A stretch of DNA of 64,000 nucleotides from contig CBDBBL010000018.1 in NCBI GenBank assembly GCA_965203125.1, positions 162,885-226,884 on the forward strand, in the 5' to 3' direction. Shown piece after piece: positions 6,681-59,127 of this stretch. The number at the start of each line of letters is the position of its first letter. The first letter of the stretch is position 1. The notes beneath the pieces were generated by a model. It was given only the letters and a program-made list of their open reading frames with translations. It searched no databases and had not been told where the DNA came from. This DNA comes from Gammaproteobacteria bacterium. GTDB taxonomy: Bacteria; Pseudomonadota; Gammaproteobacteria; CBDBBL01. Made by a program: the position numbers and the translations under genes.

Positions 6681-8165
6681 ATGAAAATATCTCACGATGC
6701 ACTCACTTTCGACGACTTACTGCTCATCCCCCGTTATTCTGAAGTCCTTCCTAATGAAGTTGACCTAACTACCCAGTTAACACGTCATATCAGCTTGAAA
6801 ATGCCATTACTATCCGCCGCGATGGATACCGTAACAGAAGCAAAACTTGCCATTACTTTGGCACAAGAAGGCGGCATCGGTATCTTACATAAAAACATGT
6901 CTACTCAGGCACAAGCTGAACAAGTCCGTCAAGTCAAAAAATTTGAGAGCGGCGTGATTCAAGACCCCGTTACCATCTCACCTGAAACAACAGTCGGCAA
7001 ATTAAAAGAACTAACACAGTCTCACGGCTTTTCTGGTATGCCCGTCATGGACTCAACATCAGGCAAAAATCAAGTAGTCGGCATAGTCACTAATCGTGAT
7101 ATTCGCTTTGAGAAGGACATGAGTAAAAAGGTCGCCGATGTCATGACATCTAAAGATCAATTAGTGACTGTTGCTGAAGGAACAGATAAACATACCATCA
7201 TGACGCTGATGCAAGAGCATAGAATTGAAAAAATACTTGTCGTCGACCAGCAGTTTTCTTTACGCGGAATGGTCACAGTCAAAGATATTCTTAAAGCAAA
7301 AGAAAAACCAAATGCAAGCAAAGATGAGCAAGGTCAGTTGCGTGTCGGCGCAGCAGTCGGGGTCGGTGCAGAAACTGAAGAACGCATCGAGCACTTAATT
7401 GTTGCAGGAGTTGATGTCATTATTATCGATACAGCACATGGGCACTCTAAAAAGGTGCTCGAACGTATTCAAGCAACACGCAAGGCTTATCCAAACCTTG
7501 CCATCATTGGTGGCAATATTGCCACTGCCGATGCTGCACAAGCATTAATTGATGCGGGGGTGGATGGGTTAAAAGTCGGCATGGGACCTGGCTCAATTTG
7601 TACAACCAGAATCATTGCAGGTATTGGTGTACCACAGGCGAGCGCCGTTGACCAAGTTGCACGTATTGCTAATCAATATAATATACCCATCATTGCCGAC
7701 GGTGGCATTCGATTCTCTGGGGATATTGGCAAAGCAATTGCTGCAGGTGCATCTAGCGTTATGATTGGTAGCTTGTTAGCAGGAACAGAAGAATCACCTG
7801 GTGAAGTTATTTATTACCAAGGGCGCGCCTATAAAAGTTATCGAGGGATGGGCTCTGTTGGCGCAATGAGCGGCGACCATAGCTCTGCAGACCGTTATTT
7901 CCAAGAAAAACCCAATCATATGAATCATCAACAAAAACTCGTTCCTGAAGGCATTGAAGGTCGAGTACCCTACAAGGGCAGTGCAGTCACGGTACTTCAC
8001 CAATTAATGGGGGGATTACGCTCGACAATGGGCTATACAGGTGCAAAAGATATCAACACGCTACGCACACAAGTTGAGTTTGTTCGCATCTCTAGTGCAA
8101 GCATGAAAGAAAGCCATGTACACGATGTGATGATTACAAAAGAAGCACCAAACTACAGCATTTAG
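6681..8165 (+). CDS. guaB: IMP dehydrogenase GuaB
   Basis: Start taken at internal Met ([22 protein letters not shown]), 494 aa; CBS pair and catalytic loop (GIGVPQ...GPGSICTTR) present. Upstream part of the listed ORF lies inside the IS and is not GuaB. Confidence 0.92.
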
Positions 8166-8338
8166 GAACTATCTATTAATAACTTTTGCAATTGGCGAAT
8201 AAATTGAATTTAGTTTTAAATGTTTTAATTGAGAAAAACCACAGTAACAGCAAGCTATTGCGCGGATTTTTCGATTGAAAAACATTTGAAAATGATTTTA
8301 ATTTAGATGAGAATTGTGAAATTTATTAATAGATACTT
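8166..8338. repeat. MITE-like repeat, family 1 (copy A), filling the guaB-guaA intergenic space
   Basis: About 90% identical to the reverse complement of 42484-42660; imperfect terminal IRs GGAACTATCTATTAATAACT / ATTTATTAATAGATACTTCC; palindromic core CAGCAAGCTATTGCG. Confidence 0.55.
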
Positions 8339-8353
8339 CCCTAGGAGTGCATT

Positions 8354-11688: not shown

Positions 11689-11979
11689 TAACAGGCTTAT
11701 TTAGGTATGATATACACACAATTGTTATCTTTTTTATCGTTTGAGCTAACACGATATTTCTTCCAAGTTAAACTTTCCGACATCATAGCGAAAAACAGTT
11801 CAACTTGAAATCAATTCCAACAACAAAAGATGACATTTTTTAACTAATGAACAAGCAGTCATTAATCATAAAAGCCCCACGGCAATCGCACCGAGATATT
11901 TCGCACAACGACTTGCTTTAGTGATTAAAACCCTGTAAAAATGGTTCTGTCGCAAACAAGAGGCAATGTGCTAAACTGA

Positions 11980-12244
11980 GTGAAAAATCACTGGAGCGAA
12001 CAGATGGCAATCGACTTTGCAGGAAGACATTATCCAAAAGATATCGTGTTATGTGCAGTGCGTTGGTATTTAGCGTACTCGTTGAGCTACAGAGATGTAG
12101 AAGAACTGCTGTCAGAGCGAGGAGCCGCTCCAGATCACTCAACAATTCAGAGATGGGTAGTGAAGTACGCACCACAATTAGAAGCTGAGTTTCGAAAACG
12201 TAAAAAGCAAGTAGGCAACAGCTGGCGAATGGATGAGACGTACA
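11980..12244 (+). CDS. IS6-family transposase, exon 1 (N-terminal part)
   Basis: Translation FAGRHYPKDIVLCAVRWYLAYSLSYRDVEELLSERGAAPDHSTIQRWVVKYAPQLE...WRMDETY is collinear with the IS26 Tnp N-terminus (GRHFQRDIILWAVRWY...HMDETY); ends at the intron 5' splice site. Confidence 0.8.
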
Positions 12245-14524
12245 GTGCGCCCAGCCTTTGGAGGCATCAAGGAAGAAGCTGCCGAAGCTTGAGCATGTTT
12301 GGAATGCGCTCATCAAACTAAGGAGTAAAAAAAAAATGAGTGCCTGAATCCTGTCATGAGGATTGTGTGAGCCGAAGCGGCGGTGATCTGCTGTGCATTA
12401 GCAGAGTGACGGAGCCCGTGGGAAACGGGATGTGAGGCGAGGTCGTTACGCCAAGATGCATCTCTAGGCTGAGTATTGGAAGGTTGAGGAACACGAACCG
12501 ATTAAATCGTATCTATGGGCTGAAACGTCGCCATCACCTACACGATCTAATAGGTGATATTCAAGCTGGTGAAAGAATAGATGTATGATTCTTTCACCCA
12601 AATTCTAGCATAAATGTAGGATGCTGGAAGGGTATCATGAAGAGAGCATGACTAGCTCATGATGCTTGATACAACTTGCAGAGCGCAAGGTTAAAGAATG
12701 CGATCGGCAACCTAACCAGTACACTTGAGTCCAGCATGTGGAATGGGGAAGGTTTATTGAAATGATAAGGGAATGCGACCCCAATGATCAATAAGCTGGC
12801 GGAGCTTTCGTAGTAGTCTGAGACAGGGAGAACCTGTTACATGGCGAAGGAAGGCAGTTTAAGTGATTTGTTTGGCAGATTACCTGCCTATAAAGAGGTG
12901 AAGACCTATGATAATCAGAGAAATGCAAAACAAATTAGCAAAGTGGTCTTTAGAAAATCGCGAGCGAAAGTTTGATCGATTACTAAGGATGATTGCAAAC
13001 CGGTCATGGTTGCAAGAGGCGGCTCGTGTCACGCTAGCATCATCAGGTGCTAGAACAGCAGGAGTTGATGGAGTAAACAAGCAGGTAATGGAGGGAAACC
13101 TCCTAAAAGAGTTGGCATTGATAAGTTCTGAGCTACTAGCAGGGAGCTATCAACCACAACCAGCCAAGCGAGTTTATATTCCCAAAGCTAACGGCAAACA
13201 AAGACCGCTAGGAATTCCGACATTACGAGACCGAATTGTGCAACGTGCTATGTTGATGGTTATGGACCCTATCTGGGAAAGCGACTTTCATCGCTTGTCT
13301 TATGGGTTTCGACCAGAACGCAGTGTTCATCATGCAGTCCGCACACTGAAAATTCAATTACAAGACGGTGGTTACACCTCAGGACGCTGGGTGATCGAAG
13401 GTGATCTGTCCAGCTATTTTGATACGGTGCATCACCGATTGTTAATGAAGTGTGTAAAAAAACGGATACGTGATCAACGCTTTCTGACATTGCTGTGGCG
13501 ATTCATCAAAGCAGGACATATCGACAAGGGTCTATTTAACGCAGCTAGTCGAGGGGTTCCCCAAGGCGGAGTAATCTCGCCATTATTATCCAATTTAATG
13601 CTCAATGAATTTGATCAATGGTTGGATAAAAGGAACTTGTCTAAAAAAGCACGCAAAGACCGTTGGTATTGGAATGATAGTATTAAACGGCAGCGCAACA
13701 TTGCTATCCAAAAAGGACGACAGTGGAAGCCTGCCGTTGCTTACTGTCGCTATGCAGATGATTTTGTTATAGTTGTAAAAGGAAGTAAAGCACATGCTGA
13801 GGATATTCGTAAAATGTGTCAGCAGTTTTTAGAAAGAGATCTCAAACTAACATTAAATATGGATAAAACTCATATTACACATGTTAATGATGGGTTCACT
13901 TTTCTAGGTCACCGCCTGATACGTAAGCGAGGATCCGAAGGAAGAATGCGGACTGTAACAACGATTCCTCAATGTAAGTCTAAAGCATTTGCGTTAAGCG
14001 TGAGCAAAGAGCTTACAAGTAATCATAGCGTGAATAAAACTGCCATGATAGAGAAGCTCAATCGCAAAATTATTGGTTGGGCAAATTTTTACCAACACAC
14101 TGATTTCACAGCTATTGTGTACCAGAAAATTGACAGAATAATATTCTGGAAACTAGCGCACTGGCTAGCTCGGAAATACCGAACTAGTGTCAAGTCGCTA
14201 ATGCGCAAATGGGTGAATCGACCGGAAGAAAGCAAAGCAAAAACTTGGCAGCTGTCTGGTCACAGTGAAAATGGAAAATATATCAAAGTGTCGTTACGAC
14301 GATTGGTAACCAGTCGTAAAATGACATTTCGCTGGCGTAATCCTGAAAGCAACCCGTATTTGATACGGGAAGAAGTCAGGAGCACAGTTACATCACGCTA
14401 TCATGAAATTGCAATGGCGATGCGTCACACTTAAATGGAGAGCCGTATGCGCTGAGAGGTGCACGTACGGTTCGGTGAGGAGAGATAGGGAAATAGTTCG
14501 ACTACGCCCTATCTCTTACTCTAC
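12245..14524 (+). mobile_element. Group II intron (ribozyme plus intron-encoded protein)
   Basis: 5' end GTGCG at 12245; near the 3' end a domain V-like hairpin GAGCCGTATGCG...CGTACGGTTCGG (about 14446-14476) followed by a domain VI-like hairpin; RT/maturase ORF inside. Joining 12244 to 14525 restores an uninterrupted IS26-like reading frame (MDETY-IKARGKWTYLYRAVD). Confidence 0.8.
12908..14434 (+). CDS. Group II intron reverse transcriptase/maturase (intron-encoded protein)
   Basis: 508 aa; RT domains with RPLGIPTLRDRIVQ, FDTVHH, YCRYADDFVIVV (YADD active site), and maturase X domain (IIGWANFYQH). No obvious HNH endonuclease motif at the C-terminus. Confidence 0.9.
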   Translation: MIIREMQNKLAKWSLENRERKFDRLLRMIANRSWLQEAARVTLASSGARTAGVDGVNKQVMEGNLLKELALISSELLAGSYQPQPAKRVYIPKANGKQRPLGIPTLRDRIVQRAMLMVMDPIWESDFHRLSYGFRPERSVHHAVRTLKIQLQDGGYTSGRWVIEGDLSSYFDTVHHRLLMKCVKKRIRDQRFLTLLWRFIKAGHIDKGLFNAASRGVPQGGVISPLLSNLMLNEFDQWLDKRNLSKKARKDRWYWNDSIKRQRNIAIQKGRQWKPAVAYCRYADDFVIVVKGSKAHAEDIRKMCQQFLERDLKLTLNMDKTHITHVNDGFTFLGHRLIRKRGSEGRMRTVTTIPQCKSKAFALSVSKELTSNHSVNKTAMIEKLNRKIIGWANFYQHTDFTAIVYQKIDRIIFWKLAHWLARKYRTSVKSLMRKWVNRPEESKAKTWQLSGHSENGKYIKVSLRRLVTSRKMTFRWRNPESNPYLIREEVRSTVTSRYHEIAMAMRHT

Positions 14525-14976
14525 TCAAGGCACGTGGAAAATGGACTTATTTGTATCGAGCTGTTGATAAGTCAGGTAAGACAATTGACTTTATGCTCAG
14601 TGAAAAACGAGATAAAGAAGCAGTACTAAAGTTCTTCAAAAAAGCGATCAATTCACATGGAAGTCCTGAGACAGTGAACATTGATAAGAGTGGTTCCAAC
14701 ACCTCAGCACTGAATCATATCAATGCACTATATTGGGTTGCTGGCTTATGGATGCTAGTGATTAATATTAGGCAGAATAAGTATCTCAATATTATTGTAG
14801 AGCAAGACCACCGAGGAATTAAGCGAGTTTTGAAAACTTCCACTTGGTTCAAATCATTTTCAAATGCTGCCGATACTTTGGCAGGAATTGAACTTCACCG
14901 TATGCTTAAAAAAGGCCAGATGAAAAACTCTGATGGAATGACTGTTTGGGAGCAATTTTATTCGCTTGCAGCATAA
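14525..14976 (+). CDS. IS6-family transposase, exon 2 (C-terminal DDE part)
   Basis: Translation ...GKWTYLYRAVDKSGKTIDFMLSEKRDKEAVLKFF...VNIDKSG...IEQDHRGIKRV...GIELHRMLKKGQ matches the IS26 Tnp C-terminal catalytic region (YLYRAVD...INTDKAP...ECDHGKLKR...GIEVMRALRKGQ). Confidence 0.8.
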
Positions 14977-23213: not shown

Positions 23214-23311
23214 GGTTTGGTATTATATACCTAGCATACGTGAAGACACCAGCTCGATAATTCATTAATTATATGCTATATTTTGCAAGTTGTTTGATTG
23301 GAAGGTTTGTG

Positions 23312-41105: not shown

Positions 41106-42508
41106 TTTTCAGGATGCTTTTTAGGCCGCTGCCAGTTGTCGATTTGCTTTTGCTTACTACGAGTCAGTGCAAGATTGTTTTCTTCAACTGATTGAGTGAT
41201 GACAGAGCCTGCACCGATAGTGCTGTTTTTTTTCAAGGTGATAGGTGCGACGAGTGCACTGTTAGAGCCGACAAAAACTTGATCTTCAATGACAGTTTGA
41301 TGTTTATGTGCGCCATCATAGTTGCAGGTAATCGTGCCCGCACCAATGTTTACTTTTTCTCCAATGGTAGCGTTGCCTAGATAAGCTAGATGATTGGCTT
41401 TGCTGTGAGCGCCCAGTGTGGTTTGCTTGGTTTCTACAAAGTTGCCAATTTTTACTGATTCTTTTAAGTGTGTGTTAGGGCGAATGCGTGCAAAAGGCCC
41501 GACTTCACAATGACTTTCTATGACAGAATCTTCAATGATAGAGAAAGGGTGGATAGTAACATGGTCGCCAATCTGGCTGTTTCTGATGATGCTGTTAGCA
41601 CCAACTTGGCAGTGTGAGCCAATCTGAGTGTTACCGATTAAGATGACGTTGATGTCTAGCATGCTATCTTGCGCTATCTGAATATTGCCTCGAATATCGA
41701 TACGGGTAGGGTCTTGGATGGTGACACCATGGCTCAACCAGTGTTGAGCTTGCGTGCGTTGATAGTGGCGTTCAAGTTCAATCAATTGTTCTCGTGTGTT
41801 GATGCCTTTGACTTCGTGTTGATCTGGGCATGAATAGCTAAATACAGCGGTGTGTTGGGCCGAAAGTGCAATGATATCGGTGAGGTAGTATTCTTGTTGT
41901 GCATTTTGCTTGCTTAAGTTGGGTAGCCATTGCTGTAGTTGTGTTGCAGGGGCGGTAATGATGCCAGTATTGATTTCTTTAATTTCTTTTTGTGCTGTGT
42001 TGGCATCTTTTTCTTCAATAATTGCAGTGATGCAGCTTGCTTTGTTATGGGTTTGGTTGCGGATGATGCGGCCAAATCCTGTGGGTGTATCAACATGGGC
42101 TGTGATTAAGCCAGTGGCTTGATGGTTGCTTGGTTCAGTCGCTATGTTGAGTAGTGCTTGTAGGGTATCAGTGGTGATCAGTGGCATGTCACCAACTAGA
42201 ATTAATACTCGATGATGTGGTGGTATGTGAGGTAATGCTTGTTGTACTGCATGTCCAGTGCCAAGTTGTTGTGCTTGATGAACCCATGTGATGTTAGCTT
42301 GGGTGATTGCTTTTTTTAATTTTGCACCATTATCACCATGGACGATAAACAGATGTTTGCTGAGTGTTTTTGCGGTGTCAACAATGTGCGCGAGCATTGG
42401 TTTTCCTGCTAGCTTGTGTAATACTTTTGGTGTGTCAGATTTCATGCGGGTACCCTGCCCCGCAGCGAGAATGACAATGCTTAGGAACTGTCCATTAATA
42501 ACTTTCAC
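41102..42508 (-). CDS. glmU: Bifunctional GlmU (UDP-GlcNAc pyrophosphorylase / GlcN-1-P acetyltransferase)
   Basis: 468 aa; N-terminal VILAAGQGTRMKSDTPKVLHKLAGKPM (compare E. coli [28 protein letters not shown]); C-terminal left-handed beta-helix hexapeptide repeats. The first 8 codons from the GTG start lie within the terminal IR of MITE copy E. Confidence 0.9.
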   Translation of the reverse strand: MKVINGQFLSIVILAAGQGTRMKSDTPKVLHKLAGKPMLAHIVDTAKTLSKHLFIVHGDNGAKLKKAITQANITWVHQAQQLGTGHAVQQALPHIPPHHRVLILVGDMPLITTDTLQALLNIATEPSNHQATGLITAHVDTPTGFGRIIRNQTHNKASCITAIIEEKDANTAQKEIKEINTGIITAPATQLQQWLPNLSKQNAQQEYYLTDIIALSAQHTAVFSYSCPDQHEVKGINTREQLIELERHYQRTQAQHWLSHGVTIQDPTRIDIRGNIQIAQDSMLDINVILIGNTQIGSHCQVGANSIIRNSQIGDHVTIHPFSIIEDSVIESHCEVGPFARIRPNTHLKESVKIGNFVETKQTTLGAHSKANHLAYLGNATIGEKVNIGAGTITCNYDGAHKHQTVIEDQVFVGSNSALVAPITLKKNSTIGAGSVITQSVEENNLALTRSKQKQIDNWQRPKKHPEK

Positions 42509-42660
42509 AGCTGATCACCTATAATAAATTCACTGTCAAATTTTTTGCAATCGAAAAATCCGCGCAATAGCTTGCTATTACTGTGGTTTTTCTCAATTAA
42601 AAAATTTAAAATTAAATTCATTTTATGCGCCAGTTGCAAAAGTTATTAATGGACAGTTCC
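42484..42660. repeat. MITE-like repeat, family 1 (copy E), with 20-bp terminal inverted repeats, overlapping the glmU start
   Basis: GGAACTGTCCATTAATAACT (42484-42503) and its reverse complement (42641-42660); interior about 90% identical to the reverse complement of 8166-8338. Confidence 0.6.
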
Positions 42661-42665
42661 TTAAG

Positions 42666-43529
42666 TCAGATGCTTGAGCCAATGGATTCTCCCATTTTAA
42701 TTGCCTGTTCACACGTTATAGTGGAATCAAACTGAATAGCATCTTTTTGCCATAAGCATACTGTAGTTGATCCGAGTAAGAATTGTCCCATTTCCTCACC
42801 TTTTTGCAAAGTGATTGCTTGGGATGCTTCTTTGTAATCCCAGGTTTGCATTTGCTTTTTATGCCCATATCCTTCACGAATGAGTCCGTGCCAAGGCACT
42901 TTAATACTAGCAACAATCATGGCGCCAACTAAAATTACAACAAAGGTATGTTGCCCATTATCAAATTCGCAAATTAAACGCTCATTGCGTGCAAATAAAT
43001 TGGGAACATGTCTTGCAGTTGCATGATTCACTGAAAACAATTTCCCAGGAACGTAAGTCATTTTTTTCAGTGTGCCAGTTTCTGGCATATGGACTCGATG
43101 ATAATCTTTTGGAGATAAATAGGTGGTCATGAAGTGACCGCCTAGAAATTTTTCACTTAAGAGTTTATCGTTTCCAAGTAGTGCATTGAGTGTAAAATGT
43201 TGGGCTTTGGCTTGAATCAGTGTGTCGTGATCAATGGAGCCAAACTGGCTGATCTCGCCATCAGCAACACTGACAACACTTCCAGTTTGACTGTCAATAG
43301 GGCGTGCTTCAGGCTTCAGCTGACGAGTGAAGAAATCATTGAAACAGGCATGCTCAGTTGCTTCACTAACCAGTGCTTCGCTCAGATCAATTTTGTAGCG
43401 TTGTTTAAATGAGAGGATGAAGTTATTTTTTAGCCATGGTTGTTCGCTACGAGCCAGTTTTCCCATTAGCCAAGTAATCAGGCGTTGCGGTAAAATGTAT
43501 TGAAGCGCAATAAAACATACTGTTCTCAT
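42666..43529 (-). CDS. psd: Phosphatidylserine decarboxylase proenzyme
   Basis: 287 aa; TTYLSPKDYHRVHMP, PGKLFSVNH, NLFARNERLICEFD and LGSTTV (self-cleavage region) collinear with E. coli Psd. Confidence 0.9.
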   Translation of the reverse strand: MRTVCFIALQYILPQRLITWLMGKLARSEQPWLKNNFILSFKQRYKIDLSEALVSEATEHACFNDFFTRQLKPEARPIDSQTGSVVSVADGEISQFGSIDHDTLIQAKAQHFTLNALLGNDKLLSEKFLGGHFMTTYLSPKDYHRVHMPETGTLKKMTYVPGKLFSVNHATARHVPNLFARNERLICEFDNGQHTFVVILVGAMIVASIKVPWHGLIREGYGHKKQMQTWDYKEASQAITLQKGEEMGQFLLGSTTVCLWQKDAIQFDSTITCEQAIKMGESIGSSI

Positions 43530-45390: not shown

Positions 45391-45884
45391 GATAACTGTT
45401 TCCATTGAGAGTTGCCGCTTTGTCCTGGTCCAGAAAAGATGCTGATATCGATTTGTTGTACGCTATCATCTTGAGTTTGCGAGTCTTGTGAAATCTGCAA
45501 AGTAAACCACCGTGCGAGTTCTTCAACCGTGATATTGCGTATCGGCAGTAATTTGACATCTTTATTGAGAAATGGGATGACTTCATGGTTGAAATGTACA
45601 TAGCAGTGAGATGATGTTTGTTCAATTTGTGTGTGAGGTGAGTTTTCTGCAAGTAATGTGTATTCGTTTAAAAACTTGCAAAGCTCAATGAGTCGTCTTT
45701 TGTAATACTTGTAATTAAAGGTCATACCATTATCATCGATGCCAGCGGTTATTTGGCAACGTACAGTGTAATTATGTCCATGTAGGCGTTCGCGTTCAGT
45801 CGCAGAGAAGATCGTAAAATGAGCAACAGAGAATTTCATAGCTTCTTTTTGCAGCTCAATGGTTGTCGTATTATTCGATGTCAT
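45387..45884 (-). CDS. 6-pyruvoyl-tetrahydropterin synthase / QueD-family protein
   Basis: 165 aa; ERERLHGHNYTV (zinc-binding HGH motif) and overall PTPS-like size. Confidence 0.6.
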   Translation of the reverse strand: MTSNNTTTIELQKEAMKFSVAHFTIFSATERERLHGHNYTVRCQITAGIDDNGMTFNYKYYKRRLIELCKFLNEYTLLAENSPHTQIEQTSSHCYVHFNHEVIPFLNKDVKLLPIRNITVEELARWFTLQISQDSQTQDDSVQQIDISIFSGPGQSGNSQWKQLS

Positions 45885-47023
45885 AATAAATGTCTCAGAT
45901 CATGAGTGGCATTGAGGGTTAATTCGGACAGGTTTTTTGTTAATACCATTGCTTTAAATTTCTCCCCCATTTGATCGGGGAAGATAAGTTGTTTAATGGA
46001 CTGTTGATGATTGTAGGTTTCGATGGTGGTTGAGTCAATTGCGCCTTGATTGATTTCATCTGTGATGCCGCAGTCGAGCAAAAAATGCCCTTGTGTTTGA
46101 TAGCTGGCAACTTGCATGTCAACTGCCAGTGCTGCCTCAGCAACTGCAGTAAAGTTGACAAAGCAAGTGAGGTCTTGTTGTCCAGGGATTGCCAGTAAAT
46201 CATCGTGTGCTTTATGTTGGTAGTGAGCAAGTGCAGTTCCCGAGTGGCGTTCTGGTGCATAAAAGCTTGCTTGCTCAAAGCCGTAGTCAATCAATATGAC
46301 CAGTCCACTGTTGAGCATGTGACTGATGGCTGCAACCCATGGAGCTATGTGAGTGTGAATTTCAGTGTGATAGGGTGACTCAATGGGTTGATGCAGGGTT
46401 GCGGTGATTGTGTTTAATTGTTTTTGCAACTGAGTATCAAGTGGCTGTGTGCTCCACTTCAGATGATCTTTCTCGATTTGTACTACTTTTTCTTTCCACT
46501 GTGATTGTTGATGGGTGATAAGATGAAAAGGTAGGGCATCTAGCACTTCATTGGCGAGTACAATGCCATCAAATTGCTCTGGAAGTGTATCAATCCAGCT
46601 AACAAGCTTGAGCAGTTGGGGTGCGCGATTCTGTAACTGCTTTTGTTGTTGTTGGCGTAAAAATGGGCTGAGTTCCATAATGTAATAATGCGTTGGTAAG
46701 CTTTGTTGTTGTTCTAAGTAAAGTAATAAATCAGTTGCCATGGTTCCCAGGCCAGCTCCGAATTCTAGTATCTTCAAGTGATTGGAGTGGCTTGTTTGTT
46801 TGTGGTCACATAAAGCGTGTTGTTTGATGATGAAGCGAGCGAGTGATTGAGAGAATGTAGGGGATATTTCAGGTGCGGTTGTGAAGTGGCCTTCTTGACC
46901 AATGGGTAGGGCGCCATTGCTATAAAACCCGAGGGTTGGATGATAGAGTGCGGTTTCCATAAAAGTCGAAAAACTAATGCGCTGGTTACCATAGGTTTGG
47001 TAGAGGTGATTTTGTATTGTCAT
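45881..47023 (-). CDS. Class I SAM-dependent methyltransferase, MidA/NDUFAF7-like (COG1565/DUF185)
   Basis: 380 aa; FMETALYHPTLGFYS...GHFTTAPEIS...ILEFGAGLGTMA pattern typical of this family. Confidence 0.65.
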   Translation of the reverse strand: MTIQNHLYQTYGNQRISFSTFMETALYHPTLGFYSNGALPIGQEGHFTTAPEISPTFSQSLARFIIKQHALCDHKQTSHSNHLKILEFGAGLGTMATDLLLYLEQQQSLPTHYYIMELSPFLRQQQQKQLQNRAPQLLKLVSWIDTLPEQFDGIVLANEVLDALPFHLITHQQSQWKEKVVQIEKDHLKWSTQPLDTQLQKQLNTITATLHQPIESPYHTEIHTHIAPWVAAISHMLNSGLVILIDYGFEQASFYAPERHSGTALAHYQHKAHDDLLAIPGQQDLTCFVNFTAVAEAALAVDMQVASYQTQGHFLLDCGITDEINQGAIDSTTIETYNHQQSIKQLIFPDQMGEKFKAMVLTKNLSELTLNATHDLRHLL

Positions 47024-47033
47024 GATGGTTTCA

Positions 47034-47193
47034 TACCCAAATCACATGAAGACACCAAGCTTTAACGGCATGAGTTCGGCAGAATGCAAATCTAAAAATT
47101 CTCGCAATAGCGGTGCTATTGCTCCATCTTTTAAATCTGATTCTGCTCAAACTCATTATGTTAAGGCCTCGGTGTCTTCATGTGGTTTGGGCA
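47034..47193. repeat. MITE-like repeat, family 3 (copy F)
   Basis: Inverted repeats TACCCAAATCACATGAAGACACC / GGTGTCTTCATGTGGTTTGGG; interior nearly identical to copy D (24685-24850). Confidence 0.6.
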
Positions 47194-47281
47194 TATCATA
47201 ACAAAATGGAGGCTTAAAAAATAGTTGACCCTCGTGGTGGTGTGCGTAAAATTGGATTTGAATTTAGTTGGGGGTGCGTTT

Positions 47282-49045: not shown

Positions 49046-50854
49046 GTGAGAATAACATCGTCTAAGCGTGTTGCAATTTTGCTAGCATGTGGTGCGACAA
49101 GCATTTTGGCTTCTCCTTTGAGGCCTGAGCTGACTGCGCTTATCCAGGGAGGGAACACAACTACATTTTGGGGTAGTGTGCTTGAGCCTTTGTTTGCGAG
49201 CAAAGATAAAGTCACTTTCTTTGATCTACAGTTGGAACACAATCATTTTTCTCAAACCAAAAACCCCAGTATATTCAGTCTAGGTTTTGGACAAAGAGCC
49301 CTTCGAAATCATCATGTCATTGGTGGATACCTGTTTGCAGATGTTGCAGAAACGGCTGCGAATGAGCGTTATTTTGTATTAAGCCCAGGTGCTGATTATT
49401 ATAAAGGTGCATTCTCTGTGGCTGTGAATGGGTATGTGCCAGTTGGTTCAAGTCACATGGTTGATGGGCGATATGTTCATGATGGTGGGGATGAGGATTA
49501 CCGGGATATCCAGAGTAATGGAGATAACTCTTATAATGTCACCTATGGTTTTTATGACTTCCAAGAGCAGATGCAATATGGAGGAGATTTATCCTTTGGT
49601 TATCATCCTATAAATAGTGATTGGGGTGGTAAAATAGGACTATACCATTTTGGTAGAAGTGATACACGTTCGCGTCAAGGTGAAAAGATGCAGCTTAACT
49701 ATGCAGCTTCTTCTCATGTGCAGGTTCGCTTGGAGGATCGTTTTGATAATTTAGATCACAACCGTGTGCTTGTCGGTGCTGTATTTAGCTTTGGGCATGA
49801 TTTGAAAGATCGTGATTTGAGAGCTCAATTAACAGCGCCAATTTATCGTAATCTAGATGTAAACACAACTGATGCTGGTTTAGGGTCAGGTTATCAACGT
49901 CTTAATAGAATAAGTGATGAGCAGAACTTTGCTCATGCTTATCTTATTGGCTATAGCTCTATTCCTACTGGTGCTGGTGTTGTCTCTACCTACACTCAAG
50001 CTAAGGATCGGGAAGCGCATGATAATAATAACAATGGTTATAATGATGCGGCTTATTTGTTTGAGGGTGGGCGATCCTACAATGTTGATTTCTCGACTAC
50101 AGGGCATGTTTTGACTGGATCTCAGAGTATTATTGGTGTAACCGAAGGGTTTCATTCTATCTCAGATGGTGGGGTGAGTGCTCCGACACTAATCAGTGCT
50201 CAATCTAAAGGAATTGATGTGCAATCCTCAGGGGAAGAAGGCTCTACTGGAGGTGTGCTAGAAGGATTTAAATTAGAGCTAACAAATGCATCTGCGACAG
50301 ATGGAATAACGATTGATGCGACATCTGCTGGAGAGAGGGTGTCTATCAAGAATGTAAGTGTTAGTGATCAAGTTGCTACAGGTGATTTAACAGGAATTGA
50401 AGTGGCAGGAGGGGCTGATGTAGCAATTAATAATGTTACATTGAATCTGTTGACTAAAAAAGAAACACAACCTTTGTTACAGGGTGTTAATGTCACTGGG
50501 AATACTAATGTGGCAATTAGTGGCGGTGTTTTCAACTTGAGAGCGGATAAAGCTGTAGCAAATATTCGGATTAAAGGTGTTGTTAATACAGGAAGCAGTA
50601 ATACAGTTGATGTTGATGGTTTGGCCCTTTCTTTTTATAAAAACACAGGGGGGCTTTATTTTAATAATGCGGTGGGAGGCACGAAGTTTTTCCGAAATAA
50701 TAGCTCAGGGAGTATAACTGTGCGTAATACTACTGCAAAATTATACAGTGATTTGTCTGGCACGCTAGATCCATCGGCTTTGAGTGCTGATTATTTTTCA
50801 TCGGGGAATAATATTATTTCTTCTGGGAATAAGTTTAATGATACTGATGTTTAA
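49046..50854 (+). CDS. Secreted/outer-membrane protein (beta-strand-rich N-terminal half, beta-helix-like C-terminal half)
   Basis: 602 aa; signal peptide MRITSSKRVAILLACGATSILAS; N-terminal half with alternating-hydrophobic strands (VLVGAVFSFG); C-terminal half with parallel-beta-helix-like G/N/T-rich repeats. Family not recognised. Confidence 0.45.
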   Translation: MRITSSKRVAILLACGATSILASPLRPELTALIQGGNTTTFWGSVLEPLFASKDKVTFFDLQLEHNHFSQTKNPSIFSLGFGQRALRNHHVIGGYLFADVAETAANERYFVLSPGADYYKGAFSVAVNGYVPVGSSHMVDGRYVHDGGDEDYRDIQSNGDNSYNVTYGFYDFQEQMQYGGDLSFGYHPINSDWGGKIGLYHFGRSDTRSRQGEKMQLNYAASSHVQVRLEDRFDNLDHNRVLVGAVFSFGHDLKDRDLRAQLTAPIYRNLDVNTTDAGLGSGYQRLNRISDEQNFAHAYLIGYSSIPTGAGVVSTYTQAKDREAHDNNNNGYNDAAYLFEGGRSYNVDFSTTGHVLTGSQSIIGVTEGFHSISDGGVSAPTLISAQSKGIDVQSSGEEGSTGGVLEGFKLELTNASATDGITIDATSAGERVSIKNVSVSDQVATGDLTGIEVAGGADVAINNVTLNLLTKKETQPLLQGVNVTGNTNVAISGGVFNLRADKAVANIRIKGVVNTGSSNTVDVDGLALSFYKNTGGLYFNNAVGGTKFFRNNSSGSITVRNTTAKLYSDLSGTLDPSALSADYFSSGNNIISSGNKFNDTDV

Positions 50855-50898
50855 CTACTAAAGATGGAGGAGGACGGGTGTTATTTACAGGAGAGCTA

Positions 50899-53800
50899 AT
50901 GAAGGGTGTTTGCAGGCTTCTAGTGTCTGTAGTACTGCTGTTCTTTGTTAGTTCTGTATTTGCGACGCCTGAATTTTTTACTGTATCCTCGCAGTCTGTT
51001 CTCGTTGGAGTATCTAAGAATTTCGCAACAGATGGTTTTGTATACTCCAATGATAGCAGTAATATTACGAGTATTACAGCTACTATTTCTGGGAACGGGG
51101 TTAGTGGACAGAGTATACCAAGCACGGGAAATTTTAATGGTCTTTCTTTGAGTGCTTCTCTGGCTGGAAGTTTTTCTTTTAGTTACAGTGGTGCTACAGG
51201 TTTAAGTAATGGCTCTTACACAATTACTGTAACCGCAGTTGATGGGAGTGGTACAGCATCAACGAACTTTACTCTAGTAGTTAGTGGGGCAACATCTGCA
51301 CCGAACATTAGTGCTCCAAGCACACATACCTTTACCAGTGGTAGCTCTGGCAGTTATGTTGTATCTATTAATGGGGTGAGTGGTGTTGCCATTTCTAGTA
51401 TTGACCAAGTAAGACTGACTGAACCAGACAGTAACACTGTTAATTTAAGTACAAATACTTTACCTCCTGCGACTCATAAAGGTTTTTACTACACCATTAC
51501 TGGTCTTGGAACTTCTTCAGCAACGTTGACAGTTCATTATAAGGGCACATTAATAGCTGCTGGCGCTTATCAAGTATTTGTCGTTGCGAATAGCAGTGGC
51601 GCCACAAATAATGGAACAACGAATATCACATTGAACCATACGGGGCTTCCAGTGATCAATGTGCCAGATCCATTGCCAACTGTTGTGAGTGGTACGGCCA
51701 ATACAAGTATGACGGGTGGAACAGTGGAGGCCCCTGCTTCTCCAGATCACAGTGCCCATTTGACGAGTATCACTGTCACGTTGACTTCCCCAAGTGGTAG
51801 TGCATCTGATTTAGGGATTACGGAAAGTAGTGCAAGTAGTAATCAGGGGTTCTACTACAGCACGAGTAGCAGTGTTTCTGGTTCGATTTCACAAACAATT
51901 ACATTAAAGTATGATGGAACTACTACTGATAGTGCAGGAACTTATCAAATAACTATTACTGCTTTAGGGACAGGGGATACAGATAGTGCATCTCAAACTT
52001 ATAATCTAGTTGTATCTCATACTGGGGCGCCAGTAATTACAGTGCCCAGTGACTCTTCGGTAACTATTGGAACTATGTCTTCTAATATCGCAGCAGGTTC
52101 TGTTGATTATGCGGAGGGAACGAATCAGCACAGTACCACTCTTTCTATTAAAGAAAGTGATGAAGATGATGCCAATTATGTGACTATTCCTGCTTGTAAT
52201 GCCACAGAAAAAGGGTTTTGTTATAATAGCAGTGGAGCGGGGGATACGGCTACATTTACGTTGAATTATAATGGCTCGATAATAAATGTAACCAATTATA
52301 CCGTAAAGATAGTTGCGTCTGATAGTGGTGATGGAGTAGATGCTGAAAGTAGTTTTCAGATTGCAGTAGCGCATCAATCAGGAGCGCCGACGGTGACCCT
52401 ATCCCAAGCGTTGACAGACAATAGTGACACCCTCAATCTGACGAATGGAACAGAACTAACAGCAACGACGGTGGCGACAGTGAGTGTGCCCAGTCATGGC
52501 ACACTGGATACCGACGTGAGCGTGACGGCGACGGGTAACATCAGTGGGCTAACGATTACGAAACCGCTGTCAGGAAGTACAGGTGGGAACGTAACGGTTG
52601 CCTATGACCCCAGTGGGAACAATATCATCCCGGATGGAGACCAAACGATTAAGATAGCAGCGACAGGTGTGAATGGAGAATCAACAAGCCGCACCTTCAC
52701 CTTAAACGTAGCGCATCAATCAGGAGCGCCGACGGTGACCCTATCCCAAGCGTTGACAGACAATAGCGACACCCTCAATCTGACGAATGGAACAGAACTA
52801 ACAGCAACAACGGTGGCGACAGTGAGTGTCCCAGTCATGGCACACTGGATACCGACGTGAGCGTGACGGCGACGGGTAACATCAGTGGACTAACGATTAC
52901 GAAACCGCTGTCAGGAAGTACAGGTGGGAACGTAACGGTTGCCTATGACCCCAGTGGGAACAATATCATCCCAGATGGAGAGCAAACGATTACGATAGCA
53001 GCGACAGGAGTGAATGGAGAATCAACAAGCCGCACCTTCACCTTAAACGTAGCGCATCAATCAGGAGCGCCGACGGTGACCCTATCCCAAGCGTTGACAG
53101 ACAATAGCGACACCCTCAATCTGACGAATGGAACAGAACTAACAGCAACAACGGTGGCGACAGTGAGTGTGCCCAGTCATGGCACACTGGATACCGACGT
53201 GAGCGTGACGGCGACGGGTAACATCAGTGGACTAACGATTACGAAACCGCTGTCAGGAAGTACAGGTGGGAACGTAACGGTTGCCTATGACCCCAGTGGG
53301 AACAATATCATCCCAGATGGAGAGCAAACGATTACGATAGCAGCGACAGGAGTGAATGGAGAATCAGCAAGCCGCACCTTCACCTTAAACGTAGCGCATC
53401 AATCAGGAGCGCCGACGGTGACCCTATCCCAAGCGTTGACAGACAATAGTGACACCCTCAATCTGACGAATGGAACAGAACTAACAGCAACGACGGTGGC
53501 GACAGTGAGTGTGCCCAGTCATGGCACACTGGATACCGACGTGAGCGTGACGACGACGGGTAACATCAGTGGACTAACGATTACGAAACCGCTGTCAGGA
53601 AGTACAGGTGGGAACGTAACGGTTGCCTATGACCCCAGTGGGAACAATATCATCCCAGATGGAGACCAAACGATTACGATAGCAGCGACAGGAGTGAATG
53701 GAGAATCAGCAAGCCGCACCTTCACCTTAAACGTAGCGCATCAATCAGGAGCGCCGACGGTGACCCTATCCCAAGCGTTGACAGACAATAGTGACACCCT

Positions 53801-56800
53801 CAATCTGACGAATGGAACAGAACTAACAGCAACGACGGTGGCGACAGTGAGTGTACCCAGTCATGGCACACTGGATACCGACGTGAGCGTGACGACGACG
53901 GGTAACATCAGTGGACTAACGATTACGAAACCGCTGTCAGGAAGTACAGGTGGGAACGTAACGGTTGCCTATGACCCCAGTGGGAACAATATCATCCCGG
54001 ATGGAGAGCAAACGATTACGATAGCAGCGACAGGAGTGAATGGAGAATCAGCAAGCCGCACCTTCACCTTAAACGTAGCGCATCAATCAGGAGCGCCGAC
54101 GGTGACCCTATCCCAAGCGTTGACAGACAATAGTGACACCCTCAATCTGACGAATGGAACAGAACTAACAGCAACGACGGTGGCGACAGTGAGTGTGCCC
54201 AGTCATGGCACACTGGATACCGACGTGAGCGTGACGACGACGGGTAACATCAGTGGACTAACGATTACGAAACCGCTGTCAGGAAGTACAGGTGGGAACG
54301 TAACGGTTGCCTATGACCCCAGTGGGAACAATATCATCCCGGATGGAGAGCAAACGATTACGATAGCAGCGACAGGAGTGAATGGAGAATCAGCAAGCCG
54401 CACCTTCACCTTAAACGTCGCGCATCAATCAGGAGCGCCGACGGTGACCCTATCCCAAGCGTTGACAGACAATAGCGACACCCTCAATCTGACGAATGGA
54501 ACAGAACTAACAGCAACGACGGTGGCGACAGTGAGTGTGCCCAGTCATGGCGAACTGGATAGCGACGTGAGCGTGACGACGACGGGTAACATCAGTGGAC
54601 TAACGATTACGAAACCGCTGTCAGGAAGTACAGGTGGGAACGTAACGGTTGCCTATGACCCCAGTGGGAACAATATCATCCCAGATGGAGAGCCAAACGA
54701 TTACGATAGCAGCGACAGGAGTTAATGGAGAATCAGCAAGCCGCACCTTCACCTTAAACGTCGCGCATCAATCAGGAGCGCCGACGGTGACCCTATCCCA
54801 AGCGTTGACAGACAATAGCGACACCCTCAATCTGACGAATGGAACAGAACTAACAGCAACGACGGTGGCGACAGTGAGTGTGCCCAGTCATGGCGAACTG
54901 GATAGCGACGTGAGCGTGACGACGACGGGTAACATCAGTGGACTAACGATTACGAAACCGCTGTCAGGAAGTACAGGTGGGAACGTAACGGTTGCCTATG
55001 ACCCCAGTGGGAACAATATCATCCCAGATGGAGAGCAAACGATTACGATAGCAGCGACAGGAGTTAATGGAGAATCAGCAAGCCGCACCTTCACCTTAAA
55101 CGTAGCGCATCAATCAGGAGCGCCGACGGTGACCCTATCCCAAGCGTTGACAGACAATAGTGACACCCTCAATCTGACGAATGGAACAGAACTAACAGCA
55201 ACGACGGTGGCGACAGTGAGTGTGCCCAGTCATGGCGAACTGGATAGCGACGTGAGCGTGACGACGACGGGTAACATCAGTGGACTAACGATTACGAAAC
55301 CGCTGTCAGGAAGTACAGGTGGTAACGTAACGATTGCCTATGACCCCAGTGGGAACAATATCATCCCGGATGGAGAGCAAACGATTACGATAGCGGCGAC
55401 AGGTGTGAATGGAGAATCAGCAAGCCGCACCTTCACCTTAAACGTCGCGCATCAATCAGGAGCGCCGACGGTGACCCTATCACAAGCGTTGACAGACAAT
55501 AGCGACACCCTCAATCTGACGAGTGGAACAGAACTAACAGCAACGACGGTGGCGACAGTGAGTGTCCCCAGTCATGGCGAACTGGATACTGACGTGAGCG
55601 TGACGACGACGGGTAACATCAGTGGACTAACGATTACGAAACCGCTGTCAGGAAGTACAGGTGGGAACGTAACGGTTGCCTATGACCCCAGTGGGAACAA
55701 TATCATCCCAGATGGAGAGCAAACGATTACGATAGCAGCGACAGGAGTTAATGGAGAATCAGCAAGCCGCACCTTCACCTTAAACGTCGCGCATCAATCA
55801 GGAGCGCCGACGGTGACCCTATCACAAGCGTTGACAGACAATAGTGACACCCTCAATCTGACGAGTGGAACAGAACTAACAGCAACGACGGTGGCGACAG
55901 TGAGTGTCCCCAGTCATGGCGAACTGGATAGCGACGTGAGCGTGACGACGACGGGTAACATCAGTGGACTAACGATTACGAAACCGCTGTCAGGAAGTAC
56001 AGGTGGGAACGTGACGGTTGCCTATGACCCCAGTGGGAACAATATCATCCCAGATGGAGAGCAAACGATTACGATAGCAGCGACAGGTGTGAATGGAGAA
56101 TCAACAAGCCGCACCTTCACCTTAAACGTAGCGCATCAATCAGGAGCGCCGACGGTGACCCTATCACAAGCGTTGACAGACAATAGTGACACCCTCAATC
56201 TGACGAATGGAACAGAACTAACAGCAACGACGGTGGCGACAGTGAGTGTGCCCAGTCATGGCACACTGGATACCGACGTGAGCGTGACGGCGACGGGTAA
56301 CATCAGTGGACTAACGATTACGAAACCGCTGTCAGGAAGTACAGGTGGTAACGTAACGGTTGCCTATGACCCCAGTGGGAACAATATCATCCCAGATGGA
56401 GAGCAAACGATTACGATAGCAGCGACAGGTGTGAATGGAGAATCAACAAGCCGCACCTTCACCTTAAACGTAGCGCATCAATCAGGAGCGCCGACGGTGA
56501 CCCTATCACAAGCGTTGACAGACAATAGTGACACCCTCAATCTGACGAATGGAACAGAACTAACAGCAACGACGGTGGCGACAGTGAGTGTGCCCAGTCA
56601 TGGCACACTGGATACCGACGTGAGCGTGACGGCGACGGGTAACATCAGTGGACTAACGATTACGAAACCGCTGTCAGGAAGTACAGGTGGTAACGTAACG
56701 ATTGCCTATGACCCCAGTGGGAACAATATCATCCCGGATGGAGAGCAAACGATTACGATAGCGGCGACAGGTGTGAATGGAGAATCAACAAGCCGCACCT

Positions 56801-59127
56801 TCACCTTAAACGTAGCGCATCAATCAGGAGCGCCGACGGTGACCCTATCACAAGCGTTGACAGACAATAGTGACACCCTCAATCTGACGAATGGAACAGA
56901 ACTAACAGCAACAACGGTGGCGACAGTGAGTGTCCCCAGTCATGGCGAACTGGATACTGACGTGAGCGTGACGACGACGGGTAACATCAGTGGACTAACG
57001 ATTACGAAACCGCTGTCAGGAAGTACAGGTGGGAACGTAACGGTTGCCTATGACCCCAGTGGGAACAATATCATCCCAGATGGAGAGCAAACGATTACGA
57101 TAGCAGCGACAGGAGTTAATGGAGAATCAGCAAGCCGCACCTTCACCTTAAACGTAGCGCATCAATCAGGAGCGCCGACGGTGACCCTATCCCAAGCGTT
57201 GACAGACAATAGCGACACCCTCAATCTGACGAATGGAACAGAACTAACAGCAACGACGGTGGCGACAGTGAGTGTGCCCAGTCATGGCACACTGGATACC
57301 GACGTGAGCGTGACGGCGACGGGTAACATCAGTGGACTAACGATTACGAAACCGCTGTCAGGAAGTACAGGTGGTAACGTAACGATTGCCTATGACCCCA
57401 GTGGGAACAATATCATCCCAGATGGAGAGCAAACGATTACGATAGCAGCGACAGGAGTTAATGGAGAATCAGCAAGCCGCACCTTCACCTTAAACGTCGC
57501 GCATCAATCAGGAGCGCCGACGGTGACCCTATCACAAGCGTTGACAGACAATAGTGACACCCTCAATCTGACGAGTGGAACAGAACTAACAGCAACGACG
57601 GTGGCGACAGTGAGTGTGCCCAGTCATGGCACACTGGATACCGACGTGAGCGTGACGACGACGGGTAACATCAGTGGACTAACGATTACGAAACCGCTGT
57701 CAGGAAGTACAGGTGGGAACGTAACGATTGCCTATGACCCCAGTGGAAACAATATCATCCCGGATGGAGAGCAAACGATTACGATAGCGGCGACAGGAGT
57801 TAATGGAGAATCAACAAGCCGCACCTTCACCTTAAACGTAGTGCATCAATCAGGAGCGCCAAATATCAACTTACTTGGTAATATCGGAACATCTGGTGTA
57901 GAGGTGACAACGGGATCTCCTCAAGAAAGTGCATTGAACTTAGCTGATATATCTGTAACACCTCATCAAGCAGATATTACGGAAGTGACATTAACTAATG
58001 GAAGTGGTGGTACTTTATCGGATGATCAAATAGATTCGTTGAGATTTGAGCCAAAATCAGGAGAGAATCGTACAGTGACGCTGAGATATGACGGCACTGT
58101 TCCCTTGCCGGCAGGGACTCATGTTCTGATGATTACGGCAAAAAATGGAAGTGATGAAGCTCATACGACAACAGTGGACTTTGATTTGATTGTTCATGCA
58201 ACCGACTCAATTCCGCCATTAGGTGGTGAGGTAACATATGGAATTTCAAATACGAATGTGGATACAGTAACGATCACCGATGGTGATAACTCGTTAGATT
58301 TGGTGCATACGCGTATCTTGATCAAGAATAGCGCTGGTACTGAAACAGTAGCAACTCTGGCAGGGGCTAATGAACCAGCAAATCATGGATATCATTTTAC
58401 TATGAATAATAAACAGATCACGTTGCATTATAATGGAGATCACGCGGAGGGCTCTTCACTGGCTCCAAATACATATAAAACAGAGATAGAAATACCGCGT
58501 GCTGGTGATTCTACACTAACAAGCCCACTTGGTACTTTAACTGTGTCTTATGCATCTGGGAAACCAACGGTTGATATTCACAACCCACCTCATATTACAA
58601 ATAGAGAAGGTGGCTATAATGAGATAATTGCAACGGTGACACCTGCTGATTTGAATACTATAAAGTCATTAACGATTACTGGTCTACCGTCGGGTATTAC
58701 ACATACTGTTAACGAGGATAAGACATCGCTTTCTATTGCCTATAATGGACAGAATGATTTACATGTGGGTAATCATGATATTACAGTAACAGCTACAGGT
58801 AGTAATGATGAGCAGCGAGTAGCGCAGTTTACACTAGAGGTGCGCTCAGGTGTTGTTTCTAGTCCAATTCATGTGGTTAATAATATGAATTTTTTTCATA
58901 ATCTAAGAATACAGTGGGTTGAACATGGAGTCGATCATAATCATTTGATTTATTATCCAATGCATGTTGGTGGTGGACATAAGGTTGATATTTCTCCAGA
59001 TATTGGAAGTCATATTACGATACAAAATAATCATAATAGTTATGAAGTTACGGCAGCACGTAGTGGGAAAAAATTGCAGTGTGGAGGAAATTCTGTTGGG
59101 AGTGCTCACTGTGCTTGGGTTTCTTAG
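50899..59127 (+). CDS. Giant repetitive surface protein (putative adhesin with about 16 tandem 114-aa Ig-like repeats); reading frame interrupted by two compensating 1-nt indels
   Basis: Strong RBS (GGAGGAGG) and signal peptide MKGVCRLLVSVVLLFFVSSVFA. The three listed ORFs (50878-52860, 52857-54725, 54649-59127) encode one collinear protein; the first and third are in the same frame. Repeat period is 342 nt, except one unit of 341 nt (C-run shortened near 52829-52833) and one of 343 nt (extra C near 54693). Confidence 0.7.
52366..57840 (+). repeat. Tandem array of about 16 near-identical 342-bp coding repeats
   Basis: Unit begins GTAGCGCATCAATCAGGAGCGCCGACGGTGACCCTATC; unit starts read at 52366, 52708, 53049, 53391 ... 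give a 342-nt period; units more than about 95% identical. Confidence 0.9.

Follow-up and report, generated by a model that had tools for sequence, protein, structure and literature searches.

Our analysis deals with a 64,000-nucleotide stretch of contig CBDBBL010000018.1 from a Gammaproteobacteria bacterium (hereafter the window; positions are counted from its first letter). On its minus strand the window carries psd followed by glmU, and at the junction of the two genes lies a palindromic repeat of 177 bp, here called element E, which resembles a MITE (miniature inverted-repeat transposable element). The data favor an insertion-and-replacement model, to which we assign a probability of roughly three in four: insertion of element E would have separated glmU from an older start codon and ribosome-binding site (RBS), and the end of the element would now provide both, together with the first eight residues (MKVINGQF) of GlmU. 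At the level of the sequence the element, its ends, the target-site duplication, the uniqueness of the present start codon and the recovery of an older start upon excision are demonstrated. The features on which the argument rests are as follows.

41102-42508, minus strand: glmU coding sequence, 468 aa (TIGR01173, 598 bits); residues 1-8 (MKVINGQF) come from the element
42484-42660, sense on the minus strand: element E, palindromic, MITE-like, 177 bp, recognized by its inverted-repeat arms, its identity to copy A and its fold
42484-42505: terminal inverted repeat (TIR), glmU-proximal arm, 22 nt, perfect; covers GlmU codons 2-8 for the most part, plus the first base of codon 9
42639-42660: TIR, psd-proximal arm, 22 nt, perfect
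42481-42483: left target-site duplication TTA (direct reading); on the minus strand it completes glmU codon 9 (CTA, Leu; bases 2-3) and opens codon 10 (AGC, Ser; base 1)
42661-42663: right target-site duplication TTA (direct reading), 2 nt downstream of the psd stop
42506-42508, minus strand: GTG, present glmU start, the only in-frame ATG, GTG or TTG from the upstream TGA to Met22
42513-42520, minus strand: Shine-Dalgarno (SD)-like octamer AGGTGATC, lying within the element 4 nt ahead of the GTG, a perfect complement to the conserved 16S 3' tail GAUCACCU
42666-43529, minus strand: psd, phosphatidylserine decarboxylase (TIGR00163, 243 bits), with its stop TGA at 42666-42668; unharmed by the insertion
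8165-8340, plus strand: copy A of the element (176 bp), in the guaB-guaA spacer, with TTA (8162-8164) on its left and CTA (8341-8343) on its right

The 20-mer GAACTGTCCATTAATAACTT was found without mismatches at 42485-42504 (plus strand) and 42640-42659 (minus strand), and with 2 mismatches at 8166-8185. Not one of 100 dinucleotide-preserving shuffles contained any match, and the recurrence of the terminal repeat of element E is real and far above chance. The inverted repeat lengthens from the perfect 22 nt to 31 nt at 90% complementarity, and the element is flanked by a perfect TTA/TTA duplication. Copy A is 86% identical to element E (24 differences at 177 positions) and stands in the opposite orientation at the unrelated guaB-guaA locus. 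As in other MITEs, the element is short (177 bp, with a sole internal open reading frame (ORF) of 44 codons and no family match to it), and it has TIRs and a target duplication (TTA/TTA in E; TTA/CTA, with one mismatch, in copy A). Within the 64 kb two copies have ends of the E/A type and four have the same core but other ends. IS5-type and 'Tourist'-like MITEs are comparable in the duplication, a 3-bp TTA/TAA being typical of the IS5/PIF-Harbinger lineage. The sense strand of element E was set by the shared core and by the better-folding strand, which is the minus strand. Within the window, a search for further matches to the terminal 20-mer (up to 3 mismatches) and for a partner transposase returned nothing beyond E and A, and no transposase with GGAACTGTCC ends. 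An Rfam scan placed no family over element E. The TIR pattern TRTCYATTAATAAMTTTYRCA gave 19 and 41 single matches in collections of genomes and of metagenome contigs, all in unrelated organisms, with no further copies and no empty site; blastn of all six elements of the window against those loci gave matches of pattern length only.

Across the junction the minus strand reads GTG AAA GTT ATT AAT GGA CAG TTC C|TA AGC ATT GTC, and this GTG is also the start given in the public annotation (P0001, 468 aa). In the glmU frame a TGA stop precedes the GTG by three codons. Downstream, the first ATG, GTG or TTG is Met22, located within the invariant LAAGxGTRM loop, and a GlmU begun there would be without its nucleotide-binding loop. 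The GTG stands just inward of the 22-nt perfect repeat, and the matching place in the other arm has GCA; it is nevertheless element sequence, because copy A has a GTG at the equivalent position 8316-8318. The original prediction had read the terminal repeat as the GTG plus the first eight codons of glmU, with the same 20-mer inverted at the other end of the element. The inverted recurrence is borne out by the perfect match at 42640-42659, and the codon reading is correct as well, whereas the coordinates need revision: the 24 nt quoted occupy 42485-42508 and not 42484-42503. That the repeat itself contains the GTG does not hold for the perfect arm, in view of the GCA in its partner, and holds only in the sense of element sequence.

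Ahead of the GTG, the octamer AGGTGATC forms a predicted duplex of -13.2 kcal/mol with the anti-SD sequence, the strongest among the 33 gene starts of the window. The corresponding place in copy A reads AGATGA-G (about -2.5 kcal/mol), and no SD-like sequence was read before either of the ATT codons 11 and 13 of glmU. From the sequence we infer that the GTG at 42506-42508 is used for initiation and that its strong SD was sharpened after the insertion. The frame running outward from the GTG is open in E as well as in A, which makes start donation a trait of the element end; agreement with the frame of the downstream gene is found in E only. Initiation at this GTG would give the N-terminal sequence (M)KVINGQFLSIVILAAGQGTR, and ACCACATC, an altered version of the AGGTGATC octamer, is named here as a design for an SD mutant.

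Within the GlmU family the first eight residues are foreign. The TIGR01173 profile alignment begins at residue 10, and GlmU chains in the PDB align from residue 6-12. Exactly 7 residues precede the LAAG motif in 93 of 117 close-scoring, motif-bearing homologues, compared with 13 in the present GlmU. The homologues follow the consensus M-x-L-S-(V/I)-(V/I)-I-LAAG, and the conserved Leu-Ser, two codons past the usual start, is encoded exactly on the duplicated TTA. An N-terminus resembling MKVINGQF occurred in none of 119 GlmU homologues, which speaks against the 20-mer as native glmU sequence. In the AlphaFold model (mean predicted local distance difference test score, pLDDT, 91) residues 1-10 average 65 and the first strand comprises residues 9-14, so that the eight element-encoded residues are modeled as a tail ahead of the fold. 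Because this tail precedes the first beta-strand, in a region that varies among GlmU proteins, the function of the enzyme is expected to be unaffected by the eight new residues. In a set of 5.8 billion proteins the closest non-self GlmU has 55% identity, and the nearest named relatives are labelled Gammaproteobacteria. By the same figure the source lineage is essentially unsampled.

The state before the insertion was reconstructed by in-silico excision, in which the element and one TTA were deleted. The resulting junction is ...TCTGACTTAAGCATTG..., in which psd ends ...ATG GGA GAA TCC ATT GGC TCA AGC ATC TGA and the glmU frame reads TTG GCT CAA GCA TCT GAC TTA AGC ATT GTC (MAQASDLSIV). Two further features are thereby defined.

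42680-42682, minus strand: TTG, probable start of glmU before the insertion, today stranded in the 3' end of psd, 180 nt upstream of the rest of glmU
42689-42693, minus strand: GGGAG, probable SD before the insertion, placed 6 nt ahead of the TTG; at -7.3 kcal/mol one of the strongest in the window

Only 1.2% of random window positions have an in-frame start within 12 codons together with an SD of -7 kcal/mol or better, and for this reason the reconstruction is read as a genuine former initiation region; that TTG and GGGAG served glmU before the insertion appears credible. The course of events would then be the following. A non-autonomous, palindromic MITE-like element of 177 bp with 22-nt perfect ends would have transposed into a TTA and duplicated it. 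This target would have lain 2 nt past the psd stop and at codon 7 of the older glmU frame, which probably began at the TTG, with its GGGAG in the psd 3' end, giving a psd/glmU overlap of 20 nt. The insertion would have parted glmU from its start codon and RBS by 180 nt. The gene would have stayed translatable through an outward GTG at the element end, matching in frame by chance and preceded by the SD-like AGGTGATC. GlmU would thereby have become MKVINGQF plus LSIVILAAG..., where the ancestor probably had MAQASD plus LSIVILAAG.... As far as glmU is concerned, the original prediction that the insertion rewrote the 5' end and the initiation region is supported: DNA of mobile type supplies the only canonical start, the first eight residues lie outside the family region, and an older start is restored in silico.

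Several points weigh against this account. The older start depends on the in-silico excision; no empty-site genome was found, and the closest GlmU is only 55% identical. Ends of the E/A type were seen in two copies only, and at copy A the two flanks disagree in one base. Three of the 24 differences between E and A fall into the SD octamer, which is weak enrichment only (p = 0.08); these differences are compatible with post-insertion tuning and suggestive of it. At the loci of the best GlmU relatives (53-54% identity) psd is not found upstream of glmU, and its place is taken by atpC, by a gene with an ORF6N domain or by an ORF without annotation. A further objection comes from the fold of the element itself: when transcription reads through from psd, the predicted unpaired probability is 0.00 for the GTG and 0.14 for the region from -20 to +15. 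The number of promoter-like sites within element E is not above shuffle expectation.

As RNA of the glmU strand, element E forms a near-perfect hairpin of -75 to -81 kcal/mol (z = -11 versus shuffles); the element folds at -74.9 kcal/mol on the minus strand and at -55.4 kcal/mol on the plus strand. Because the GTG and the region from -20 to +15 are paired, poor translation is expected from a psd read-through mRNA. For transcripts starting inside element E the unpaired probability rises to 0.55-0.57. Two promoter-like sites (9/12 matches each) were found on the glmU strand inside the element, and no terminator was predicted at the element. One of the sites and the internal ORF are as follows.

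42620-42649, minus strand: promoter-like TTAATA-18-TAAAAT in the psd-proximal arm, 9/12 matches; a transcript from just past it would omit the sequence that pairs with the SD and the GTG
42505-42639, minus strand: 44-codon ORF in element E, from TTG (42637-42639) to TGA (42505-42507), its stop overlapping the glmU start as GTGA

Since a read-through transcript would lock both SD and GTG in the hairpin, the glmU mRNA probably starts inside the element or is processed. A further scenario is a relay, in which ribosomes leaving psd would re-initiate on the 44-codon ORF, melt the hairpin and hand over to the glmU GTG; copy E would then be a domesticated, regulated initiation module, and the elements would be built for life inside genes. 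The observations behind this idea are a frame open through the core in 6/6 copies, the outward SD and GTG, a hairpin with G.U pairs on one strand and the GTGA continuity, which is particular to E (in copy A the 44-codon frame is closed at codon 31 by a TGA where E has TGC). We regard the relay as doubtful, and put it forward tentatively.

The same hairpin is an argument for an alternative that we consider unlikely, namely that the insertion disabled or crippled glmU. The gene would then be a recent pseudogene (complemented by another copy, or with the insertion being polymorphic) or would start at ATT codon 11 or 13, and the GTG of the element would be irrelevant. In a read-through mRNA the start region is wholly sequestered in a hairpin of about -75 kcal/mol, the perfect TTA duplication and the 22-nt ends are compatible with a recent event, and the question of a second copy is viewed from 64 kb of genome only. 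Against this stands the gene itself, with an intact frame of 468 codons in which every invariant GlmU residue is kept. The 8-nt perfect SD at the right distance from the GTG is without counterpart in copy A, and none precedes the ATT codons. The differences at 24 of 177 positions between E and A show that the family is not newly active. Moreover, glmU is essential in peptidoglycan-making bacteria, and the organism has murF.

Alternatively, the psd-glmU junction could stem from a rearrangement, by recombination between copies or by an adjacent deletion, in which case the older start would be coincidental and the native 5' end lost elsewhere. Dispersed repeats are known recombination substrates, and the absence of psd upstream of glmU in every relative examined, where atpC or other genes are found, would fit. 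However, the same TTA on both flanks is what transposition predicts, the flanks, once joined, yield an in-frame start together with a strong SD, a combination offered by only 1.2% of random positions, and the joined sequence carries on into the consensus ...LS(I/V)VILAAG without a gap. Taken together these points make a rearrangement quite improbable. As evidence on the empty site the glmU loci of the relatives were rejected as uninformative, psd never being upstream.

An assembly artefact, with a repeat collapsed or misplaced at the junction, has little to recommend it. Repeats are classic sites of misassembly, and the sequence probably belongs to a metagenome-assembled genome from an apparently single-member lineage known solely from contigs of 237 kb and 126 kb. 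Yet the junctions are exact: a 3-bp duplication is in place and the reading frame is kept. With 14% divergence between E and A, reads would not be mistaken for one another, and the long contig has a coherent gene order around the site. That the 20-mer is native glmU 5' sequence copied elsewhere, the element having been born at glmU, is very improbable: nothing but the overlap itself speaks for it, the same sequence stands at both ends of E and of copy A in the guaB-guaA spacer, none of 119 homologues is MKVINGQF-like, and the family profile starts at residue 10.

The situation at copy A is different from that at glmU. Two features mark its borders.

8163-8165, plus strand: guaB stop TAG, composed of TA from the target duplication plus the initial G of copy A
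8343-8347, plus strand: AGGAG, guaA SD, made of the last A of the right duplication and native GGAG; not element sequence

Here guaA keeps its own ATG (8354), 13 nt past the element, and its own SD. In the reconstructed empty site (...AGC ATT TAG GAG TGC ATT ATG) stop and SD are unchanged. The sole contribution of copy A is the G that completes the guaB TAG, and the same TAG is present in the empty site, where the native flank also starts with G. The original prediction had seen the sequence upstream of guaA, including an AGGAG RBS, in the right end of copy A, and had concluded that initiation regions of essential genes, guaA among them, were rewritten. Neither part is supported for guaA, given that the AGGAG consists of a duplicated A and native GGAG and that ATG and SD are the gene's own. 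The plural 'essential genes' receives separate support from a MurF protein described below.

Altogether the window holds six full copies of the element and one fragment. All six share the core AATAGC(AAG/ACCG)CTATTG. Copies A and E have GGAACTGTCC... ends and TTA flanks, and B, C, D and F have TACCCA...TGGGTA ends and TA flanks; to judge from the ends, it looks as if one hairpin core had been mobilized by two different transposase systems.

24687-24849, minus strand: related element B, with core AATAGCACCGCTATTG, TACCCA...TGGGTA ends and TA flanks, between tssA and tssB
30029-30190, minus strand: related element C, shared core
34372-34537, minus strand: related element D, shared core, between pilQ and aroK
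47033-47194, minus strand: related element F, shared core, with its end 10 nt ahead of the ATG that opens the methyltransferase gene 45881-47023

The end of element F occupies the ribosome-binding region of this Methyltransf_28-family gene (45881-47023, minus strand; spacer 47023-47034). Beside element D, also between pilQ and aroK, lies a fragment of another element end (...GATTTGGGTATA, 34310-34370), which suggests nested or repeated insertion at one site. The type VI secretion genes tssA (ImpA_N) and tssB (VipA) at 23273-25443 are parted by element B.

In all six copies the strand with the markedly better fold is the same one with respect to the core (D: -85.7 vs -61.0 kcal/mol). The reason is that the stem mismatches are G.U on the better strand and A.C on the other; summed over the minimum free energy structures, G.U pairs number 43 vs 18. 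From the sequences, this bias suggests selection on a single-stranded form of the family (RNA or single-stranded DNA). Selection at the RNA level locus by locus, with the better-folding strand always co-directional with the flanking genes, was considered and rejected, only 4/6 copies fitting. Likewise rejected was the idea that element plus duplication always amounts to a multiple of 3 and is frame-neutral, which is true of E (177+3) and F (160+2) and untrue of A (176+3), B and D (159+2).

In each of the six copies the frame giving N-S-K-L-L at the core stays open over most of the length. NCBIfam includes domain models for Rickettsia palindromic elements (RPEs), and a search of NCBIfam and Pfam with seven element-encoded peptides (E-values up to 10) yielded no RPE-domain, DUF1658 or other credible match. 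A protein search with all element-encoded peptides returned a single protein, P0121, a MurF of 500 aa encoded on another contig, 126 kb long, of what is apparently the same or a sister genome. Residues 228-283 of P0121 form a 55-aa in-frame insert whose identity is 78% to translated element F (47034-47198, plus strand) and 73% to B. E. coli MurF aligns to P0121 residues 19-223 and 285-497 and not across the insert, and the top MurF representatives likewise align in two pieces split at the insert. With murF hit by a related element, the plural of the original prediction has a second case besides glmU. On this sequence evidence the repeat family is apparently one that tolerates residence inside essential genes, and the in-frame insert of MurF, missing from E. 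coli MurF and from the top representatives, is the ground on which we regard it, by analogy, as behaving like the RPEs.

Dispersed repeats that fuse with host ORFs internally, at 3' ends or at 5' ends are described in PMC3184786, and RPEs (Ogata et al. 2000) have inserted in frame in many metabolic genes according to PMC10969869. Like the RPEs as portrayed in PMC10969869 and PMC3184786, the elements of the window are palindromic, about 150 bp long, fold into long hairpins, carry open frames and leave housekeeping genes undestroyed. A palindromic repeat lying in frame within a protein gene is present in MurF P0121, and element E is fused to the N-terminus of GlmU. Unlike the RPEs, the family resides in a gammaproteobacterium-like host and not in Rickettsia (the gene content includes a type VI secretion system, pilQ-aroK and guaBA), and its peptides have no RPE homology in NCBIfam and Pfam. 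Copies E and A differ further in having clear TIRs and a 3-bp TTA duplication, and E adds no internal peptide, replacing instead the start codon and the RBS.

The Neisseria REP2 (Morelle et al. 2003) and Borrelia IR (Dunn et al. 1994) repeats contain promoter, RBS and ATG, as stated in PMC3184786. The hallmark of REP2, an RBS and an initiation codon inside the repeat that feed a host ORF, was found in element E (AGGTGATC at 42513-42520, GTG at 42506-42508). REP2, as characterized there, has no TIRs, its own promoter and an ATG, whereas element E has long TIRs, a putative promoter only and a GTG; unlike REP2, element E displaced the existing start of a conserved essential gene. In pneumococcus, well-known genes, folE and dnaJ among them, often take their stop codons from BOX elements (Croucher et al. 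2011, PMC3049150), and boxC gives the start codon in three transcribed cases, all hypothetical ORFs without good SDs (PMC3049150). Overlap with annotated genes is shared with BOX, RUP and SPRITE, copy A giving the last base of the guaB stop. The starts supplied by BOX belong to hypothetical ORFs with poor SDs (PMC3049150), in contrast to GlmU with its excellent SD.

The QMITE1 and QMITE2 elements of Coxiella burnetii affect all functional genes concerned at their 3' ends, and 5' insertions were argued to be disfavoured (Wachter et al. 2018, PMC5896051). QMITE1 is 300-400 bp long with variable direct repeats of 2-4 bp and DUF1658 peptides, and QMITE2 150-190 bp with direct repeats of 7-11 bp (PMC5896051). 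The present family resembles the QMITEs in being MITEs of the 150-400 bp class in a gammaproteobacterium of similar G+C, with very stable hairpins that overlap gene ends and alter terminal residues. It departs from them in the replacement of a 5' end, in its duplications (TTA or TA; 3 bp, TTA, at the 177-bp element E) and in having no DUF1658 match. The Correia elements of Neisseria, which measure about 150 bp, have TIRs, are co-transcribed with neighbouring genes, form a hairpin cut by RNase III and possess promoter-capable ends (PMC3049150 and PMC3184786), are similar to element E in size and TIRs, a likeness by description.

Other features of the window were noted in passing. A group II intron occupies about 11940-14525, with a reverse transcriptase/maturase ORF at 12908-14434 (TIGR04416) and a match to Rfam Intron_gpII at 14438-14524. 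What is presumed to be the 5' ribozyme part of this intron (11943-12611) has an inverted counterpart at 30205-30870, at 90-98% identity, beside element C. An inverse-autotransporter (intimin/invasin-like) gene spans 49046-59127 (plus strand), with the IAT_beta domain in the ORF 49046-50854 and 16 tandem repeats of 342 bp (114 aa, Ig-like) at 52300-57900. The reading yields four ORFs in succession; where the frame breaks, the repeats are spaced by 341 and 343, and these breaks could be frameshifts, phase variation or errors in repeat assembly. A tmRNA gene lies at 36958-37331 (plus strand; Rfam RF00023, 173 bits).

Gene starts supplied by repeats are already known as a kind, and the glmU case is a clear and instructive example that adds no new principle. 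Overlaps between repeats and genes are mostly at 3' ends, as with all of those in Coxiella (PMC5896051) and 36 of 58 BOX overlaps in pneumococcus (PMC3049150), and repeat-supplied starts have so far been shown for hypothetical ORFs only. A conserved, essential enzyme with a repeat-derived start would therefore make a textbook-style example, all the more as the old and the new initiation regions can both be read and the new one is buried in a hairpin. It allows a base-by-base view of how a selfish repeat may be tolerated in the first codons of an indispensable gene, by bringing along its own start and RBS. For annotation a word of caution follows: the first eight residues and the RBS of the present GlmU appear non-orthologous to those of other GlmU proteins. 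Should the relay apply, GlmU synthesis would depend on the translation of psd and would link the synthesis of phospholipids to that of cell-wall precursors. Together, the GlmU and MurF cases point to an RPE-like family outside Rickettsia, in a deep-branching, unsampled lineage of the Gammaproteobacteria.

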